IMG/VR virus record: IMGVR_UViG_648276668_000001
Coordinates: 1-6,407 of that record
Source of the DNA: a virus
Lineage: Duplodnaviria > Heunggongvirae > Uroviricota > Caudoviricetes
DNA: 6,407 bases
Direction: 5' to 3' (one strand)
Shown one piece after another: positions 1 to 6,407 of this stretch (positions are counted from its first letter, which is position 1; each line of letters begins with the position of its first letter). The position numbers and the translations under genes were made by a program. The notes under the pieces are model-generated. The model was not told where the DNA came from and searched no databases. It worked only from the letters and a program-made list of their open reading frames with translations.

Positions 1-2
1 TT

Positions 3-2108
3 GGCTGTACCAGCCGGGGGCAGGCACACCGCGCCGGGCTGTGGCTGATTAAAACGGAACTGCTGGAGACGCAGACCGTGGATTTCAGCGTGGGTGCTGA
101 AGGGCTTCGCCATGTACCGGGCGATGTCATTGAAATCTGCGATGATGACTATGCCGGTATCAGCACCGGTGGTCGCGTGCTGGCGGTGAACAGCCAGACC
201 CGGACGCTGACGCTCGACCGTGAAATCACGCTGCCATCCTCCGGCACCACGCTGATAAGCCTGGTTGACGGTGAGGGTAATCCGGTCAGCGTGGAGGTCC
301 AGTCCGTCACCGACGGCGTGAAGGTGAAAGTGAGCCGTGTTCCTGACGGCGTTGCTGAATACAGCGTGTGGGGGCTGAAGTTGCCGACGTTGCGCCAGCG
401 CCTGTTCCGCTGCGTGAGTATCCGTGAGAACGACGACGGCACGTATGCCATCACTGCCGTGCAGCATGTACCGGAGAAAGAGGCCATCGTGGATAACGGG
501 GCGCACTTTGACGGCGACCAGAGCGGCACGGTGAATGGTGTCACGCCGCCAGCGGTGCAGCACCTGACTGCCGAAGTCACCGCAGACAGCGGGGAATATC
601 AGGTACTGGCCCGCTGGGACACGCCGAAGGTGGTGAAGGGCGTGAGCTTCCTGCTTCGCCTGACCGTGGCAGCGGACGACGGCAGTGAGCGGCTGGTCAG
701 CACGGCCCGGACGACGGAAACCACATACCGCTTCACGCAACTGGCGCTGGGGCGTTACACGCTGACAGTCCGGGCGGTAAATGCGTGGGGGCAGCAGGGC
801 GATCCGGCATCGGTATCGTTCCGGATTGCGGCACCGGCAGCGCCTGTCACTATTGAACTGATACCAGGGTATTTTCAGATAACAGCGGTCCCGAAACTGG
901 CTGTATATGACCCGACGGTGCAGTTTGAGTTCTGGTTCTCGGAAAAGCGGATTACCGATATCAGGCAGGTTGAAACCAGCGCGCGTTATCTTGGTACGGC
1001 GCTGTACTGGATAGCCGCCAGTAGCAATATTAAGCCGGGTTATGATTATTACTTTTATATCCGCAGCGTGAACACTGTTGGTAAATCGGCATTTGTGGAG
1101 GCCGTCGGTCGGGCGAGCGATGATGCGGAAGGTTATCTGAATTTTTATAAAGGGTTGATCAATAAAACGCATCTCGGCAAGGAACTGCTGGAAAACTTTG
1201 AGCTGACGGAAGATAACGCCAGCAAACTGGAGGAGTTTTCGAAAGAGTGGAAGGACGCTAACGATAAATGGAATGCCATGTGGGGCGTCAAAATTGAGCA
1301 GACCAAAGACGGCAAACATTATGTCGCGGGTATTGGCCTCAGCATGGAGGATACGGAGGAAGGCAAACTGAGCCAGTTCCTGGTTGCCGCTAACCGTATC
1401 GCGTTTATTGACCCGGCAAACGGGAATGAAACGCCGATGTTTGTGGCGCAGGGCAACCAGATATTCATGAACGAAGTGTTCCTGAAGTATCTGACGGCTC
1501 CCACCATTACCAGCGGCGGTAATCCTCCGGCATTTTCCCTGACACCGGACGGGCGGCTGACGGCGAGAAATGCTGATATCAGCGGTAACGTGAATGCGAA
1601 CTCCGGGACGCTCAATAATGTCACGGTAAATGAAAACTGTACGATTAAGGGCATGCTGGAGGCGAACCAGGTCAGAGGTGACTTCGTTAAAACTGTATCC
1701 AAATCATTCCCGAAAAAGGCTGGTACGTGGGGTAACACGGAAACACCAAACGGGACGGTTACAGTCACCATTTACGATGATCATAACTTTGACCGCCAAA
1801 TCATTATTCCGCCCATTATTTTTAACGGTGTGGCGTATGACGATCCGGGGAGCGGTAATAACCCGGGAGGTACGCGATACACGGGTTATGGTTTTGAAGT
1901 TCGCAAAAATGGCGTATTAATCGCATCCAGAGAAACTAAAGGAGCCATTCCCGGTAGTTACAGTGCGGTTATTGATATGCCGAGTGGTGGTGGTAACGTC
2001 ACTCTGGAGTTTAAGATTTTCCAGAAAGGCAATCAGGGCGCAGGTAACATCACAGACTGTACGGTGATTGTGACCAAAAAAGCTGCTTCCGGTATCAGTA
2101 TCCGTTGA
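3..2108 (+). CDS. J: Host-specificity / tail-tip protein (lambda J-like), C-terminal ~700 codons; 5'-partial, gene continues upstream of the window
   Basis: The reading frame is open from position 3 with no stop until TGA at 2106-2108. The provided ORF (78..2108) starts at an internal GTG, but translation of bases 3-77 gives [26 protein letters not shown], continuous with it. From memory, the [51 protein letters not shown] stretch matches lambda J. Two fibronectin-III-like segments are present (e.g. ...[32 protein letters not shown]...), followed by a distal C-terminal domain that in J-type proteins carries receptor specificity. Confidence 0.9.
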
Positions 2109-2129
2109 AATATTTATAACCCCAATACG

Positions 2130-2155
2130 GGCGCCAGAAATGGCGCCTTTTTTAT
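2130..2155 (+). terminator. Rho-independent terminator between J and stf
   Basis: Perfect 7-bp GC-rich stem GGCGCCA (2130-2136) / TGGCGCC (2141-2147) with a GAAA tetraloop, immediately followed by TTTTTTATTT (2148-2157). It lies 22 nt after the J stop. Confidence 0.6.
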
Positions 2156-2168
2156 TTGTGGAGTGAGT

Positions 2169-4541
2169 ATGGCAGTACAGATTTCAGGTGTGCTGAAAGA
2201 TGGTGCGGGAAAACCAATACAGAACTGCACTATTCAACTGAAGGCAAAGCGTAACAGCACCACGGTACTGGTGAACACGGTGGCCTCTGAAAATCCGGAT
2301 GAAGCCGGGCGTTACAGCATGGATGTTGAGTATGGCCAGTACAGCGTTATCCTGCTGGTTGAAGGTTTTCCGCCTTCACATGCCGGAACCATTACCGTCT
2401 ATGAAGGTTCCAGACCAGGTACGCTGAATGATTTTCTCGGTGCCATGACGGAAGATGATGTCATGCCGGAGGCATTGCGTCGTTTTGAGGCAATGGTGGA
2501 AGAAGCGGCACGCAACGCTGAAGCCGCCTTTCAGAGCGCAGCGGCGGCAAAGAAATCCGAAGCTGCTGCGGCATCATCGAAGAACGCGGCGAAAAGCTCA
2601 GAAACGAATGCAGCTAACAGCGCACAGGCGGCAGCGGCCTCACAGACTGCATCGGCAAACTCCGCGACAGCAGCCCAAAAATCAGAAGCCAACGCGAAAA
2701 ATAGCGAAACAGCCGCAAAGACGAGTGAAACCAACGCGAAGTCCAGCCAGACGGCAGCGAAAACCAGCGAAACGAATGCCAAAGTCAGTGAAACTGCAGC
2801 GAAAAACAGCCAGGCTGCAGCAGCTGAAAGCGAGAGCGCAGCAGCCGGTTCTGCGACTTCAGCAGCTGGATCAGCAACTGCTGCGGCTAACAGCCAGAAA
2901 GCTGCGAAGGCGAGCGAAACTAACGCAAAGTCCAGCCAGACGGCAGCGAAGACCAGCGAAACGAATGCCAAAGCCAGCGAAACTGCGGCGAAAAGCAGTC
3001 AGGATGCAGCAGCCGAAAGCGAGAGTGCTGCAGCTGGTTCTGCAAGCGCGGCGGCTGCTTCTGCCACTGCATCAGCTAACAGTCAAAAAGCAGCAAAAAC
3101 CAGTGAAACCAACGCAAAGGTGAGCGAAACAGCGGCTGCGAACTCAGCGAAAGCATCGGCAGCAAGCCAGACGGCAGCTAAAGCAAGCGAAGATGCAGCC
3201 AGAGAGTACGCAAGCCAGGCTGCGGAGCCGTATAAATATGTCTTACAGCCGCTGCCTGATGTGTGGATACCATTTAACGATTCGCTGGATATGATTACGG
3301 GCTTTTCGCCGTCATATAAAAAGATTGTTATTGGTGATGATGAAATAACGATGCCTGGCGACAAGGTTGTTAAGTTTAAACGCGCATCGAAAGCAACCTA
3401 TATTAATAAATCTGGTGTGCTGACAGAGGCTGCCATTGACGAGCCACGGTTTGAACGTGATGGCCTGCTTATTGAGGGGCAAAGAACGAACTACATGCTC
3501 AATTCGGAAAGCCCTGCCAGTTGGGGGCGATCGTCAAATATGGATGTGCCCGAAACCGGGACGGATAGTTTTGGTTTTACCTATGGAAAGTTTGTCTGTA
3601 ACGATTCTCTGATTGGGCAAACCTCAGCCATTAATATGGCATCAATTGCTGCAACAAAGTCAGTTGATGTCTCAGGCGATAATAAACACGTGACAACCTC
3701 ATGTCGTTTTAAAACAGAACTGCAGGTAAGGTTGCGTATCCGGTTTGATAAATATGACGGTAGCGCAACAACTTTTCTTGGTGATGCGTATATTGATACA
3801 CAAACGCTTGAAATTAATATGACAGGCGGTGCTGCCTCAAGGATTACAGCGAGAGTCAGAAAGGACGAAGCTACCGGATGGATTTTTGCAGAGGCAACAA
3901 TTCAGGCAATTGATGGGGAGTTAAAAATAGGTTCTCAGATACAGTATTCTCCTAAGCAGGGCGGGGCAACCGTATCTGGTGACTATATTTATCTGGCCAC
4001 CCCACAAGTAGAAAATGGGCCTTGTGTATCATCTTTTATTATATCAGGAACGACGGCGGCGACCCGCGCAAGCGATATAGTTACAGTTCCAATTAAGAAT
4101 AATCTTTATAATCTTCCTTTTACGGTTCTTTGTGAGGTACATAAGAACTGGTATAAAACGCCAAATGCAGCGCCGCGTGTTTTTGACACCGGCGGTCATC
4201 AAACCGGAGCGGCTATTATTCTTGGCTTCGGTTCTTCAGCAGATTACGACGGATTTCCTTATTGCGATATTGGAGGAGCTAACAGACGGGTAAACGAAAA
4301 CGCATCGCTTGAAAAAATGGTTATGGGGATGCGTGTAAAGTCAGATCAGTCTACGTGCTCAGCAAGTAACGGGCGTATATCCAGCGAAACAAAAACCACA
4401 TGGTCCTGTATTCAGAACACCGCAATTATCCGTATTGGAGGCCAGACTACAGCCGGGTTACGTCATTTATTTGGTCATGTCAGGAATTTCAGAATATGGC
4501 ACAAGGCATTGACTGATGCTCAGGTGGGGGAGTCAATCTAA
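2169..4541 (+). CDS. stf: Side tail fibre protein (Stf-like), mosaic: lambda-Stf-like N-terminus, repetitive Ala-rich shaft, distal domain ending in a LamG/concanavalin-like motif
   Basis: The provided ORF starts at GTG 2163, but ATG 2169 is preferred: GGAG at 2160-2163 sits 5 nt upstream, and the product then begins MAVQISGVLKDGAGKPIQNCTIQLKAKRNSTTVLVNTVASENPDEAGRYSMDVEYGQYSVILLVEGFPPSHAGTITVYEGS, which I recognise from memory as the lambda Stf N-terminus. Residues ~120-350 are A/S/T/K/E/N-rich tandem repeats. The distal ~440 residues are different in character and lower in GC, ending ...IIRIGGQTTAGLRHLFGHVRNFRIWHKALTDAQV, which resembles the C-terminal strand motif of LamG_3 / concanavalin-like lectin domains. 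Stop TAA at 4539-4541. Confidence 0.85.
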   Translation: MAVQISGVLKDGAGKPIQNCTIQLKAKRNSTTVLVNTVASENPDEAGRYSMDVEYGQYSVILLVEGFPPSHAGTITVYEGSRPGTLNDFLGAMTEDDVMPEALRRFEAMVEEAARNAEAAFQSAAAAKKSEAAAASSKNAAKSSETNAANSAQAAAASQTASANSATAAQKSEANAKNSETAAKTSETNAKSSQTAAKTSETNAKVSETAAKNSQAAAAESESAAAGSATSAAGSATAAANSQKAAKASETNAKSSQTAAKTSETNAKASETAAKSSQDAAAESESAAAGSASAAAASATASANSQKAAKTSETNAKVSETAAANSAKASAASQTAAKASEDAAREYASQAAEPYKYVLQPLPDVWIPFNDSLDMITGFSPSYKKIVIGDDEITMPGDKVVKFKRASKATYINKSGVLTEAAIDEPRFERDGLLIEGQRTNYMLNSESPASWGRSSNMDVPETGTDSFGFTYGKFVCNDSLIGQTSAINMASIAATKSVDVSGDNKHVTTSCRFKTELQVRLRIRFDKYDGSATTFLGDAYIDTQTLEINMTGGAASRITARVRKDEATGWIFAEATIQAIDGELKIGSQIQYSPKQGGATVSGDYIYLATPQVENGPCVSSFIISGTTAATRASDIVTVPIKNNLYNLPFTVLCEVHKNWYKTPNAAPRVFDTGGHQTGAAIILGFGSSADYDGFPYCDIGGANRRVNENASLEKMVMGMRVKSDQSTCSASNGRISSETKTTWSCIQNTAIIRIGGQTTAGLRHLFGHVRNFRIWHKALTDAQVGESI
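2724..3135 (+). repeat. In-frame tandem repeat inside stf: two ~189-bp (63-aa) copies plus a partial third, each built from ~42-bp (14-aa) sub-repeats
   Basis: Direct comparison: 2733-2921 (aacgcgaagtccagccagacggcagcgaaaaccagcgaaacgaatgccaaagtcagtgaaactgcagcg...) recurs at 2922-3110 (aacgcaaagtccagccagacggcagcgaagaccagcgaaacgaatgccaaagccagcgaaactgcggcg...) with few substitutions. At protein level TNAKSSQTAAKTSETNAKVSETAAKNSQAAAAESESAAAGSA... is followed by TNAKSSQTAAKTSETNAKASETAAKSSQDAAAESESAAAGSA.... Boundaries are approximate. Confidence 0.8.
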
Positions 4542-4822
4542 TGAAAGATTTAACACTCAAATTTGAAGACAGGGCCGACTTTTCGGCCTTTATGGAGAGT
4601 ATTGGCTATTATGATGACGAGTCGATGCAGGATGATATTCTTATCGACGTGATAGGTAACGCGTACAAAGAAACCGGAGAACTGACTGAAGATGGCGAAC
4701 CGGTATGTGTTAAGGAAGACGGATATTTTGTAAACGTGCGCATCATTAATGATTCGCAAATATCGTCATTATTCGATGAGTACGTGGTTGCTGTTGAGCA
4801 TCAACTTCGTGGCTGGATGTGA
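4541..4822 (+). CDS. Hypothetical 93-aa highly acidic protein, translationally coupled to stf; function unknown (candidate fibre chaperone/adaptor or DNA-mimic-like anti-defence protein)
   Basis: The ATG at 4541-4543 overlaps the stf stop (TAATG). A GGGGGAG Shine-Dalgarno-like stretch (4526-4532) sits 8 nt upstream. The product has 22 Asp+Glu against 7 Lys+Arg by my count (net charge about -15). I recognise no family motif. Confidence 0.6.
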   Translation: MKDLTLKFEDRADFSAFMESIGYYDDESMQDDILIDVIGNAYKETGELTEDGEPVCVKEDGYFVNVRIINDSQISSLFDEYVVAVEHQLRGWM

Positions 4823-4831
4823 GGAAGAAAA

Positions 4832-5872
4832 ATGGCTACATCGACAGTAATTCCTGATGACATCAAAACGCTAAAATCCGACGTTAGCAAATTAAAAAAC
4901 GATCAAGGAAGCTACGCAACAAAATTATATGTAGACAGCAAAGATGAAATCGTTGGTGACTGGTCTGCTTCATGGTATCAGCAGGTATTGCCAACTAGCG
5001 GAGCTATATTTGGGAGAAAACTCCGCTCAACTCACAGGACGGCAGGTGTTGAGGATGCGTATTGCGAACTATACCTCAAAAAATGGATAGACAGTCCAGG
5101 TAACGCAATGGCGCGCCTTAACCTGAACGATAACGGGACAAACATTTGCTGGGACTTTACCAACCTTTATGGCGGTACGATGATTTTTCCCGGTGACAGC
5201 GGATACCTCAAAATGGGTAACTGCCTTATGTCATACAGCAAGCGTGGAAGTAACGCGCTTATTAAATTTGATTACACCGACACATTACAGATCAAATATG
5301 CCAATCATGGGTCAACCATGACATTAAACACACAGGGAACCGCTTATGCTGGTGTTACTGCTCAATTGTGGGGCAACTCCAGCCGTCCTGTTGTTTATGA
5401 AGTCGGTGTTGATGGTGGCGCTTATATGTTCTATGCGCAGAAAAATACCGATAACACCTATATGTTAAGCGTTAATGGTGCATGTCATGCCACAGCATTT
5501 AACCAGCATTCCGACCGGGATCTGAAAGACAACATTCAGGTGATCGATAATGCAACCGACCGCATCCGTAAAATGAACGGCTATACATACACGCTTAAAG
5601 AAAACGGTATGCCCTATGCTGGTGTCATTGCACAGGAAGCTCTGGAAGCAATCCCAGAAGTTGTAGGTTCCGCAATGAAATATCAGGACGGTGCAAGCGG
5701 ATCGGAAGGTGAAGAAGGTGAACGTTATTACACAGTAGATTATTCTGGTGTTACTGGCTTGCTTGTTCAGGTAGCCAGAGAGTCAGACGACAGAATAACA
5801 GCACTGGAAGAAGAAAATGCAGAATTAAAACAAAGATTATCTGCAATTGAGGCGACGCTTGCGTCTAAATAA
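4832..5872 (+). CDS. Short tail-fibre/tailspike-like protein with a C-terminal intramolecular chaperone (peptidase S74-type) autoproteolytic domain
   Basis: GAGGAAG lies 5 nt upstream of ATG 4832. The C-terminal ~120 residues, HSDRDLKDNIQVIDNATDRIRKMNGYTYTLKENGMPYAGVIAQEALEAIPEVV...YYTVDYSGVTGLLVQVARESDDRITALEEENAELKQRLSAIEATL, carry the hallmarks of the self-cleaving chaperone domain seen in endosialidase tailspikes and T5 L-shaped fibre: SD..LK.NI at the predicted cleavage site (Ser227, codon 5510-5512), GVIAQE...PEVV, and a terminal coiled-coil-like segment. The N-terminal ~226 residues would be the mature product. GC is low. Confidence 0.8.
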   Translation: MATSTVIPDDIKTLKSDVSKLKNDQGSYATKLYVDSKDEIVGDWSASWYQQVLPTSGAIFGRKLRSTHRTAGVEDAYCELYLKKWIDSPGNAMARLNLNDNGTNICWDFTNLYGGTMIFPGDSGYLKMGNCLMSYSKRGSNALIKFDYTDTLQIKYANHGSTMTLNTQGTAYAGVTAQLWGNSSRPVVYEVGVDGGAYMFYAQKNTDNTYMLSVNGACHATAFNQHSDRDLKDNIQVIDNATDRIRKMNGYTYTLKENGMPYAGVIAQEALEAIPEVVGSAMKYQDGASGSEGEEGERYYTVDYSGVTGLLVQVARESDDRITALEEENAELKQRLSAIEATLASK

Positions 5873-5878
5873 TATTAA

Positions 5879-5898
5879 GGGGCCGAGCGCCCCGTTTT
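5879..5898 (+). terminator. Probable intrinsic terminator after the S74-domain gene
   Basis: GGGGC (5879-5883) / GCCCC (5889-5893) stem with a 5-nt loop, followed by GTTTTATT. The stem is short, so this is a weak-to-moderate call. Confidence 0.45.
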
Positions 5899-5914
5899 AT
5901 TGGGTAGGATGAAA

Positions 5915-6208
5915 ATGGATATAACACCTTTCCTTCATGCACTTTGTGCTGTGGCTGCGCAGGTACTGGTTGGTCTTTTTACCGGAAACTGGGCTTACGG
6001 GGCGATAGCCGGTTGTACGTTCTTCATTGCTCGTGAACATACCCAGGCAGAATATCGCTGGATTGAAATGTTCGGGCATGGCAAGCGTATGAATATGCCG
6101 TGGTGGGGTGGTTTTGATCCGCGCGTGTGGGATGTGGCAAGCCTGATGGATTTTTCTGTGCCGGTGGTGGCGTGTCTGCTGGTCTGGCTGTTGGTTAATC
6201 GTGGGTGA
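5915..6208 (+). CDS. Small hypothetical integral membrane protein (~98 aa, three predicted transmembrane helices)
   Basis: The provided ORF (5900..6208) starts at TTG. ATG 5915 is preferred because AGGA at 5906-5909 sits 5 nt upstream; ATG 5909 is an alternative. Three hydrophobic segments: ITPFLHALCAVAAQVLVGLFTG, WAYGAIAGCTFFIA and VASLMDFSVPVVACLLVWLLV. No lipobox and no recognisable catalytic motif. Stop TGA at 6206-6208. Confidence 0.55.
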   Translation: MDITPFLHALCAVAAQVLVGLFTGNWAYGAIAGCTFFIAREHTQAEYRWIEMFGHGKRMNMPWWGGFDPRVWDVASLMDFSVPVVACLLVWLLVNRG

Positions 6209-6218
6209 AAAAAGGTGA

Positions 6219-6347
6219 GCTGTATATGCAACGGAGGAAGAAACCTCGCTGCTGGAAGCCTGGAAAAAGTATCGGGTGTTGCTGAACCGTGTTGATACAT
6301 CAACTGCACCTGATATTGAGTGGCCTACGAACCCTGTCAGGGAGTAA
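6219..6347 (+). pseudogene. tfa: Remnant of a tail-fibre assembly gene (tfa): conserved C-terminal ~40 codons only, no start codon
   Basis: The frame opens directly after an in-frame TGA (6216-6218) and reads [42 protein letters not shown], ending at TAA 6345-6347. From memory, [30 protein letters not shown] is the conserved C-terminal motif of lambda-type Tfa proteins. There is no ATG/GTG/TTG in frame and no N-terminal ~150 codons. It is absent from the ORF track because it is short and start-less. Confidence 0.7.
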
Positions 6348-6362
6348 TCATTGGGGATTATG

Positions 6363-6396
6363 CCGCAGAAACGTTGTATGCAATAACGTTCTGCGG
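6363..6396. repeat. Imperfect inverted repeat / hairpin (12 bp stem with one bulge, 9-nt loop) just downstream of the tfa remnant
   Basis: CCGCAGAAACGTT (6363-6375), loop GTATGCAAT, then AACGTTCTGCGG (6385-6396). No T-run follows on either strand, so it is not a classical intrinsic terminator. It may be a protein-binding site or part of an element continuing beyond the window. Confidence 0.4.
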
Positions 6397-6407
6397 TTGG
6401 CTGATGC

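Follow-up and report, generated by a model that had tools for sequence, protein, structure and literature searches.

Seroconversion genes adjoin the tailspike genes in phages ε15, P22, Sf6, and CUS-3, and a different set of phage-encoded proteins, T4 Imm, P22 SieA, and HK97 gp15, has been reported to block translocation of the incoming genome. Further precedent for small phage proteins that act on the cell surface is given by Gnarl1-3, stand-alone phage proteins of 40 to 90 amino acids (aa) that alter the O-antigen, and by the small D3 protein Iap, which blocks the O-antigen polymerase (PMC12373910). Here we describe a gene for a small membrane protein at positions 5915 to 6208 of a 6,407-nucleotide (nt) stretch of DNA (the window; positions 1 to 6,407 of IMG/VR record IMGVR_UViG_648276668_000001), which is the tail end of an Escherichia coli lambdoid prophage adjoining sitABCD. 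The protein is a member of no named family, and its closest kind is the accessory membrane proteins encoded beside receptor-binding genes; across many phage types, the constant neighbor of the family gene is an upstream receptor-binding gene. The existence of the gene is not new, since databases already list it, with a PHROG number, under the label of a hypothetical protein or a putative membrane protein. In the searchable literature, queried by motif and by PHROG and accession identifiers, the family was not found described, and this applies to its size, its invariant polar motif, and its link to receptor-binding genes across tail types, as well as to its cellular orthologs, its decay in two virulent lineages, and its prevalence in E. 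coli.

A small polytopic inner-membrane protein is encoded by a functional gene at 5915 to 6208, and the gene and its ribosome-binding site are as follows.

5906 to 5909, plus strand: Shine-Dalgarno-like AGGA, 5 nt 5' of the ATG (sequence read)

5915 to 6208, plus strand: membrane-protein gene, member of PHROG 1443 (open reading frame [ORF], coding sequence called by the NCBI Prokaryotic Genome Annotation Pipeline [PGAP], PHROG match, AlphaFold2 model, alignments, and ratio of nonsynonymous to synonymous substitution rates [dN/dS])

Sequence reading and translation gave an ORF of 294 nt, from ATG to TGA, encoding 97 aa; the initial annotation, which put it at about 98 aa, was right about a small protein and slightly off in the exact length. 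On E. coli chromosomes that are nearly identical, PGAP calls the same 294-nt coding sequence and names it “hypothetical protein.” The AGGA motif bears out the Shine-Dalgarno sequence that had been ascribed to the ORF, and in Gally and Perceval, two prophages of E. coli LF82 that carry homologs, AAGGAG or AGGAGG occurs at an equal distance and derives from differing upstream sequence. Alternative in-frame starts lie upstream at ATG 5909 and TTG 5900; the start at ATG 5915 is preferred because DNA homology among the window, Perceval, and Gally begins exactly there. The ORF has a GC content of 52.4%, against 44.1% for the preceding S74 fiber gene and 42.2% for a 93-aa ORF farther upstream, so that it shows the base composition unlike that of its neighbors by which morons are recognized.

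The 99-aa translation from ATG 5909, used as the query, matched PHROG 1443, a family of unknown function, with an E value of 7.7e-59 over query residues 3 to 98 and profile positions 1 to 96 of 97. No Pfam family was matched at an E value of ≤0.1, no NCBIfam family was matched by the membrane protein, and 0 families among the PADLOC-DB 2.0 defense models were matched at an E value of ≤1. At an E value of ≤10, the only Pfam match of the window protein was a subthreshold one to PhoR (13.5 bits versus a cutoff of 27.1); a relation to the N terminus of PhoR, subthreshold and seen in 6 of 57 members, was rejected, the similarity being read as one of composition in a transmembrane hairpin rather than as homology. 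A word-indexed search returned 570 homologs, and an exhaustive profile search of 1.84 billion representatives (E value of ≤0.001) returned 438 clusters at 50% identity. All of these clusters were 58 to 142 aa long, and the family protein is therefore always stand-alone and never part of a larger protein. All 240 relatives among those listed were named “hypothetical protein.”

Family alignments defined the conserved core of the 97-aa protein as FIAREHTQAEYRWIxxFGxGKRxNMPWWGGFDxRVWD. In an alignment of 57 diverse members from alpha-, beta-, gamma-, and deltaproteobacteria, E41, W72, and P83 were invariant, H8, R40, Q44, A45, and E46 were at least 90% conserved, and position 79 was Asp in 48 members and Asn in 6. 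Because the motif residues are invariant or nearly so over such a range of hosts, a conserved target is implied. Values of dN/dS among E. coli alleles were 0.12 to 0.28 in the ORF frame, and the family is under purifying selection. None of 80 E. coli alleles from viral contigs had an internal stop, and 76 encoded exactly 97 aa; in the other 4, the stop codon was lost and the frame read through the downstream scar of a tail fiber assembly (tfa) gene, giving 146 aa. With its 570 homologs, low dN/dS, and predicted helices, the gene is a genuine and conserved one for a protein of the membrane type that the initial annotation had supposed, and the two points on which that annotation depended held, in that transmembrane helices were predicted and the frame was kept in related prophages.

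Counting the ORF alone at a coverage of at least 80%, we found the gene in 1,870 of 5,426 complete E. coli genomes, with a median of 2 copies and a maximum of 7. E. coli family members are 83 to 96% identical. At least three prophages of LF82, namely, Gally, Perceval, and Tritos, carry a copy, and classic phage 21 has one as well (CPT_21_24 in OL657228, “putative membrane protein”), located between the fiber block and sitDCBA. The cargo position suggested by comparison with lom and cor was borne out; the gene is no local oddity, the family being very large and spread across many phage types.

Kyte-Doolittle 19-residue means peaked at 1.9 for helix 1 and 2.2 for helix 3 and at only 1.0 to 1.2 for helix 2. 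An AlphaFold2 model from a 24-sequence alignment placed helices at residues 4 to 23, 26 to 53, and 74 to 96, with a predicted local distance difference test score of 94, and the protein probably folds as a three-helix bundle. The depositors' record of the phage 21 homolog reads “29 AA signal sequence; TMHMM 2 TMDs.” The prediction is thus of two or three membrane spans; the three helices are well supported in the model, and helix 2 may span the membrane. The three-helix membrane protein of the initial annotation is upheld as far as the helices go by AlphaFold2 and, clearly for helices 1 and 3 but marginally for helix 2, by hydropathy, its three spans being a prediction that TMHMM did not share for the phage 21 homolog. 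The three predicted hydrophobic helices indicate an inner-membrane protein.

The mean number of Lys and Arg residues was 5.8 on the side comprising the N terminus and loop 40 to 73 versus 0.7 on the side comprising the turn between helices 1 and 2 and the C terminus. Under the positive-inside rule, this lopsided distribution would place the N terminus and the conserved 34-residue loop in the cytoplasm, with almost nothing predicted to be periplasmic. The nearly invariant positions H8, R40-E41, Q44-A45-E46, W72, D79, and P83 lie near one membrane face, and if residues 4 to 23, 26 to 45, and 74 to 96 span the membrane, then H8, E41, and D79, each on a different helix, lie 4, 4, and 5 residues from the same face. 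Such helix bookkeeping suggests a buried polar site of H8, E41, and D79, together with R40, Q44, and E46, at the cytoplasmic-side interface. Foldseek searches of the model against PDB and BFVD returned nothing at an E value of ≤0.001, the only true relative from fold comparison was a 42-aa fragment in phage anhysbys, and a profile search of PDB sequences was empty even at an E value of ≤10.

The receptor-binding genes beside which the family gene lies are of several kinds. In the window it follows an S74 fiber gene, and in Perceval and phage 21 it follows a side-tail-fiber (stf)-like gene and a 92-aa ORF. In Gally and phage 611R6 it follows P22-type tailspike genes and lies just before int, the OafA O-acetylase gene also preceding it in 611R6. 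In Aeromonas P2/HP1-like prophages it occupies the slot of P2 gene G, after an H-type fiber gene, with overlapping stop and start codons; in a Comamonas prophage and a related contig it follows giant J-type tip protein genes and a 72-aa ORF; and at some loci it follows an S74 fiber gene and a DUF7936 gene. The candidate rule that it always follows an S74 chaperone domain was rejected, since Perceval, Gally, and many others have no S74 domain upstream.

A scan of IMG/VR with an alignment of distant members gave 80 diverse environmental loci. At 68 of these, the family gene was abutted or overlapped on its upstream side by an ORF on its own strand, in most cases 400 to 800 aa long. Among these 68 ORFs, 36 matched Pect-lyase_RHGA_epim, 10 matched End_N_terminal, 8 matched Peptidase_S74, 8 matched Beta_helix, and 4 matched an endosialidase catalytic domain, these being overlapping Pfam counts from crude ORF calling at loci that are not phylogenetically independent. 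The upstream genes with such domains are depolymerase-type spikes. The downstream genes usually started 2 to 4 nt after the stop codon and, subject to the same census limits, were mostly structural (18 adaptor-like, 6 tail, and 6 scaffold-like), endolysins making up about 4 of 66.

Among virulent phages, the gene is seen both decayed and intact. Coliphage 6947 and its relatives have a broken, unannotated 51-aa remnant directly after the S74 tailspike gene (locus L007, 2965 to 3120), and Kuttervirus KFSST3 has a broken, unannotated 41-aa remnant directly after a tailspike-region gene (locus L006, 2980 to 3105). The remnants imply that the spike modules of these two lineages came from temperate phages together with the neighboring gene, which then decayed. 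In Aeromonas jumbo phage ACP1, an intact, divergent 87-aa copy stands just before a spike-like gene. A purely lysogenic-conversion role, which was also considered, was weakened by the late-operon positions of the gene and by the intact ACP1 copy.

The upstream sequences of the 80 E. coli loci fell into three unrelated classes (n = 30, 29, and 19 to 21). The ORF averaged 96% identity between the classes, and 20 between-class pairs were at least 99% identical. The gene is thus a self-contained cassette and the conserved right flank of variable fiber and spike cassettes. Since it is near-identical beside different cassettes, it is a plausible homology arm for fiber-cassette swapping, whatever its function. 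A mosaic junction within the ORF was seen in 611R6 (locus L004, 5845 to 6288) on comparison with window positions 5720 to 6208; the 611R6 sequence has the window allele from about 150 nt upstream through about two-thirds of the gene and then a Gally-type allele, covering helix 3. At another locus, L085, the 3' end of the S74 fiber gene is interrupted about 60 nt upstream of the ORF by what is presumably an IS1 end (…CTATCAATAAGTTGGAGTCATTACC), and the hairpin before the ORF and the ORF itself are intact.

The other features of the window are listed below in order.

78 to 2108: C terminus of J, the first gene in the window

2129 to 2148, plus strand: strong terminator-like hairpin, an 8-bp stem followed by TTTTTATTT, between J and the fiber block (scan)

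2163 to 4541, plus strand: side-tail-fiber-like protein of 792 aa with a phage_tail_N domain (Pfam PF08400, E value of 1.6e-66; PHROG 1419)

4541 to 4822, plus strand: acidic 93-aa ORF of PHROG 1361 (unknown function), its start overlapping the stop of the stf-like gene

4832 to 5872, plus strand: tail fiber protein of 346 aa with a C-terminal Peptidase_S74 intramolecular chaperone (PF13884, E value of 4.7e-14; PHROG 4563, “tail fiber protein”)

5879 to 5893, plus strand: weak terminator-like hairpin GGGGC-CGAGC-GCCCC followed by GTTTTATT, with a stem of five G-C pairs (consensus scan)

6228 to 6347, plus strand: tfa scar, a 40-codon C-terminal remnant with a 39-residue translation (translation and PGAP)

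6362 to 6397, no strand assigned: stem-loop at the junction of the prophage and sitD, after the tfa scar (inverted repeat)

The stf-like gene opens the fiber block, which the membrane-protein gene closes. Within the stf-like gene, a tandem array on the plus strand (2703 to 3119; 189-nt period, 2.2 copies, 81% matches, with nested 42- and 21-nt periods) gives the shaft of the protein its repeats rich in Ala, Ser, Thr, and Lys (…SETNAKSSQTAAKT…). The 93-aa ORF lies directly upstream of the membrane-protein gene in 29 of the 80 related E. coli loci; in other lineages, its slot is held by other small soluble ORFs, namely, the 110-aa DUF7936 protein or, after J-type tips, the 72-aa ORF. The terminator-like hairpin claimed to precede the membrane-protein gene was found at 5879 to 5893, though it is weak (−11.9 kcal/mol; z = −1.1 versus shuffles), and in 611R6 it travels with the last ~150 nt of the fiber gene and the ORF. 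Downstream, translation and a PGAP pseudogene call (“tail fiber assembly protein, incomplete, missing N-terminus”) confirmed the tfa remnant before which the gene had been placed, and this scar was present in 43 of 48 related loci that reached far enough downstream. In this lambdoid late operon, the gene lies at the end where cargo is carried, in the former place of tfa. The stem-loop at the sitD junction is stable (−23 kcal/mol; z = −3.5; 0 of 200 shuffles folded as well) and is not a canonical terminator, since neither strand has a T run. An Rfam scan of the window gave no match.

Expression data were available for the LF82 homologs, as distinct from the window's own prophage. In lysogeny broth (LB), neither homolog passed a moron test of 5-fold above the local background, and Gally was judged to be without morons (PMC9928086). 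The Gally copy, LF82_765, had log2(fpkm + 5) values (fpkm, fragments per kilobase per million) of 3.75 and 4.53 in LB, 6.0 to 7.0 in Dulbecco's modified Eagle's medium (DMEM), and 7.9 to 8.7 in macrophages; the Gally terminase, portal, and injection genes stayed near 2.5 to 4.2, and the five rightmost Gally genes were induced 6- to 40-fold (PMC9928086). From the table of that study (PMC9928086), we estimate the rise of the Gally copy in macrophages at roughly 20-fold. The Perceval copy, LF82_183, which is 95% identical to the window protein and comes from the same prophage family, had a log2 fold change in macrophages of 3.0 (q = 1.9e-5; about 8-fold) and rose together with the stf-like gene PERCE_22 (4.85) and the 92-aa ORF PERCE_23 (3.73), J having a value of 2.05, still near the detection floor, and lom a value of −2.07 that was not called significant (PMC9928086). 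Both homologs thus rise with the adjacent fiber or spike genes, and most other late genes stay low. In phage 21, a terminator is annotated at the position matching the hairpin at 2129 to 2148; this hairpin after J and the LF82 pattern of a nearly flat J and an induced fiber block suggest that the fiber block and the membrane-protein gene are separable from the late operon in transcription.

Upstream of the ORF in the window, no sigma-70 promoter match of at least 9 of 12 positions was found. By eye, TTGAGG-17 nt-TAATAT (8 of 12) was noted at 5847 to 5875 on the plus strand, overlapping the stop of the fiber gene and kept in 611R6; on a purely speculative view, a transcript from this element would start inside the hairpin at 5879 to 5893, which would leave its terminator stem incomplete. 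The Gally copy of the family gene is preceded by a strong terminator, an AT-rich spacer of 190 nt, and AAGGAG, and promoter-like matches there were not above shuffle expectation. Expression in lysogens is conditional and may come from the fiber block rather than from a promoter of the gene itself. Expression from the prophage, as first proposed, therefore holds conditionally, with the LF82 homologs induced in macrophages, and does not hold for LB, where they were at background and were not scored as morons. The small RNA svsR of a related prophage of adherent-invasive E. coli was dismissed as a local element because it sits at cI instead, and a preprint on CRISPR interference in LF82 reported nothing on the family gene.

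As a possible role, favored only tentatively, we propose receptor masking or superinfection exclusion through a conserved envelope pathway. From its polar site, the protein would bind or perturb a conserved inner-membrane step of envelope biogenesis, the likeliest target being the undecaprenyl-phosphate-linked assembly of surface polysaccharide (O-antigen or capsule). Carrier or producer cells would then show less receptor, or altered receptor, to phages with polysaccharide-specific fibers or spikes, and the outcome would be receptor masking or superinfection exclusion. In the window, the late or fiber transcript would read through the weak hairpin into the gene, and the homolog data suggest conditional transcription in lysogens together with the fiber genes. 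We favor this role because the link to polysaccharide-specific fibers and spikes is deep and recurs in independent lineages and because a conserved target is implied; the predicted topology, the conditional expression of the homologs, and the decay in two virulent lineages point the same way. An exclusion or immunity gene had already been suggested, as speculation, in the initial annotation. By its context the gene is a good candidate for a function between phage and host envelope, and no relation in sequence or fold to T4 Imm, SieB, Cor, Lom, or the PADLOC models was found.

Several observations weigh against this role. The family evolves slowly and has chromosomal orthologs, and exclusion proteins are usually fast evolving and phage restricted. 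Nonphage orthologs were found in Aeromonas and at locus L252, where the gene (7001 to 7309) has a TerB-like gene on one side and a GGDEF gene on the other. In A. rivipollensis, A. aquatica, and A. media, the ortholog is downstream of a pirin gene (L010, 8001 to 8309; L018, L020, and L022 are likewise Aeromonas chromosomes), followed in A. rivipollensis L010 by a kinase-like gene and two lipid A acyltransferase genes, and A. taiwanensis has a copy of the same chromosomal clade. This clade is 79 to 96% identical internally, has a dN/dS of 0.15 to 0.2, and is about 57% identical to the Aeromonas prophage copies. Among 34 loci with 224 neighbors, no chromosomal partner recurred, a polysaccharide-pathway neighbor included; the only repeated neighbors were pirin in Aeromonas and ligA in three alphaproteobacteria. 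In addition, many copies lie inside late structural operons, which is late for changing a surface receptor, and the same allele stands beside unrelated fiber and spike types, so that the protein cannot be receptor specific. The homologs are at background in LB-grown lysogens, and neither literature nor annotation yielded a functional datum for the family. The topology, too, is a predicted one, and the loop could instead be periplasmic, given that TMHMM assigned two spans to the phage 21 homolog.

The chromosomal orthologs bear most directly on the rather unlikely alternative that the gene is cargo for host physiology, in essence a small membrane protein of cells (for example, a module for stress or for the binding of ions or metals that uses the H8/E41/D79 site) that phages acquired and that benefits the lysogen when conditions resemble those in the host. 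Orthologs at a conserved chromosomal site in at least four Aeromonas species, the L252 ortholog in its TerB-like and GGDEF setting, and a conserved His/Glu/Asp cluster that could bind metal are all in keeping with such a module, as is the proximity of the gene to the sitABCD Mn/Fe importer cargo in the window's prophage family. The higher expression of the LF82 homologs in DMEM and macrophages than in LB also fits, although this induction may be read-through rather than regulation of the family gene, because the neighboring fiber and spike genes rise too. Cargo of this kind leaves unexplained the position downstream of receptor-binding genes, often with overlapping codons in late operons, and no transporter or other partner recurs beside the gene. 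That same position would be accounted for if the protein were a late partner of the receptor-binding protein, acting from the tfa slot in the maturation, membrane-proximal assembly, or release of the fiber or spike. The gene occupies the former place of tfa in the window, where the scar is still seen, and the P2 gene G slot in Aeromonas, where it overlaps the fiber stop; gaps to flanking structural genes are 0 to 4 nt in many viral contigs; the LF82 copies are coinduced with the fiber genes; and the gene decays in lineages that gained only the spike. We nevertheless regard a late partner as unlikely, since fibers and spikes fold in the cytoplasm whereas this is an integral membrane protein, S74 fibers bring their own chaperone, and chromosomal orthologs occur with no fiber gene nearby. 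Fiber chaperones, moreover, covary with their fibers, and here near-identical alleles flank unrelated fiber types.

A lysis function, as a holin, antiholin, or lysis-timing factor, has some basis in the size and three helices of the protein, which resemble those of class I holins, in a weak Phage_holin_8 match in 1 of 57 members (E value of 0.0036), and in gene order. In several environmental phages, genes for small holin-like membrane proteins come directly after the family gene, and an endolysin gene comes next, the endolysin being a GH108 plus PG_binding_3 protein at loci L246, L251, and L250, and at L248 a lysozyme lies about 1.6 kb downstream; possibly the Comamonas prophage belongs here too, its family gene (L009) preceding two membrane proteins and a 183-aa protein only suspected to be an endolysin. 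The endolysins at about 4 of 66 downstream positions in viral contigs are of the same tenor. Phage 21 lysis, however, depends on S21 and R21, Gally has its own holin, lysin, and Rz, and the Aeromonas P2-like carriers have a CHAP/LysC cassette 7 kb upstream. The Gally homolog stands at ~8.5 log2 fpkm in live intracellular bacteria that produce no phage, the C-terminal tail is only “NRG” and not charged, the long, strongly conserved polar loop is unlike that of holins, and the chromosomal orthologs have no endolysin neighbor, all of which makes a lysis function quite improbable. An Imm-like block of genome translocation at the inner membrane is the most doubtful possibility weighed here and fits least, given the near-absent periplasmic exposure. 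A small inner-membrane protein encoded by prophages from a cargo position at the end of the late operon has the right general look, and P2-like phages keep antiviral cargo after their fiber genes, at the Z/fun hotspot. Under the predicted topology, though, almost nothing would be periplasmic; high conservation and chromosomal orthologs are atypical for such proteins; no match to Imm_superinfect, SieB, or PADLOC was found; and there are several copies per genome, with a separate gene at the sieA position in Gally.

A more specific form of the masking role may be put forward as an unlikely conjecture. On this conjecture, a three-helix module with a buried His-Glu-Asp (plus Arg/Gln) site would bind the universal lipid-linked glycan carrier or a conserved enzyme of its pathway; phages of all three tail types would keep the module beside polysaccharide-specific fibers and spikes as a generic, serotype-independent means of remodeling or shutting down the producer's surface polysaccharide, and some bacteria would have domesticated it. 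If true, the family would represent an envelope-reprogramming factor of a class new among phages, one carried by phage 21 and by about a third of E. coli genomes. No parts of phage genomes are exchanged or engineered more than the receptor-binding modules, and the near-invariant right flank of these modules implies an unrecognized role (in infection, exclusion, or envelope remodeling), an anchor of homology for fiber swapping, or both. Control of surface polysaccharide, if real, would bear on host range in phage therapy, on serotype evolution, and on pathogenic lysogens in macrophages.

Among known systems, T4 Imm, P22 SieA and SieB, and HK97 gp15 are likewise small phage-encoded inner-membrane proteins, yet they occupy other genomic positions, and the present family is far more conserved and widespread. 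Class I holins such as lambda S105 and P22 gp13 are likewise about 100 aa long with three hydrophobic helices, and a lysis cassette lies beside the family gene in a few phages. The family differs from them in its opposite predicted orientation (N-in/C-out versus N-out/C-in), its conserved 34-residue loop, and its uncharged tail; carriers have their own holins, homologs are expressed in living lysogens, and an adjacent endolysin is absent from the window and present only in some environmental lineages. A beta-barrel of the Lom/Ail kind does not fit either, there being no Ail_Lom match in Pfam and an all-helical model.

The group that shares the location immediately beside a receptor-binding gene consists of the masking and seroconversion proteins, namely, Cor of phi80, N15, and T1, Llp of T5, gp21 to gp23 of ε15, GtrABC of P22, Oac of Sf6, NeuO of CUS-3, and Iap of D3. 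Some members of this group are small proteins of the membrane or envelope whose action is on the surface of the producing cell itself, and in 611R6 the family gene occupies the same slot as the OafA acetylase gene. Pfam and fold searches gave no sequence or fold relation between these proteins and the family. Cor and Llp are outer-membrane proteins or lipoproteins with one receptor each, and the remaining members are either enzymes or proteins limited to a single polysaccharide; the present protein has neither a lipobox nor features of an outer-membrane location of the Cor/Llp type, its only N-terminal Cys (C11) being preceded by H-A-L, and unlike the masking group, the family is near-invariant beside many fibers and spikes and has cellular orthologs. 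Gnarl1-3 are also small stand-alone proteins of lytic and temperate phages and have been proposed to act on envelope-biosynthesis proteins and not as enzymes; Gnarl3 binds cytoplasmic GalU, membrane topology and fiber linkage are not described for Gnarl1-3, and the family motif is absent from the supplementary sequences of that study (PMC12373910).

The nearest counterparts are members of the family itself. CPT_21_24 of phage 21, LF82_183 (PERCE_24) of Perceval, and LF82_765 (GALLYPH_17) of Gally belong to the same family, PHROG 1443, as the window protein, and in phage 21 and Perceval the gene has the same position as in the window, after the side-tail-fiber block and before sitDCBA. The window differs from these two phages in carrying an extra S74 fiber gene and the weak hairpin between the 93-aa ORF and the membrane-protein gene.

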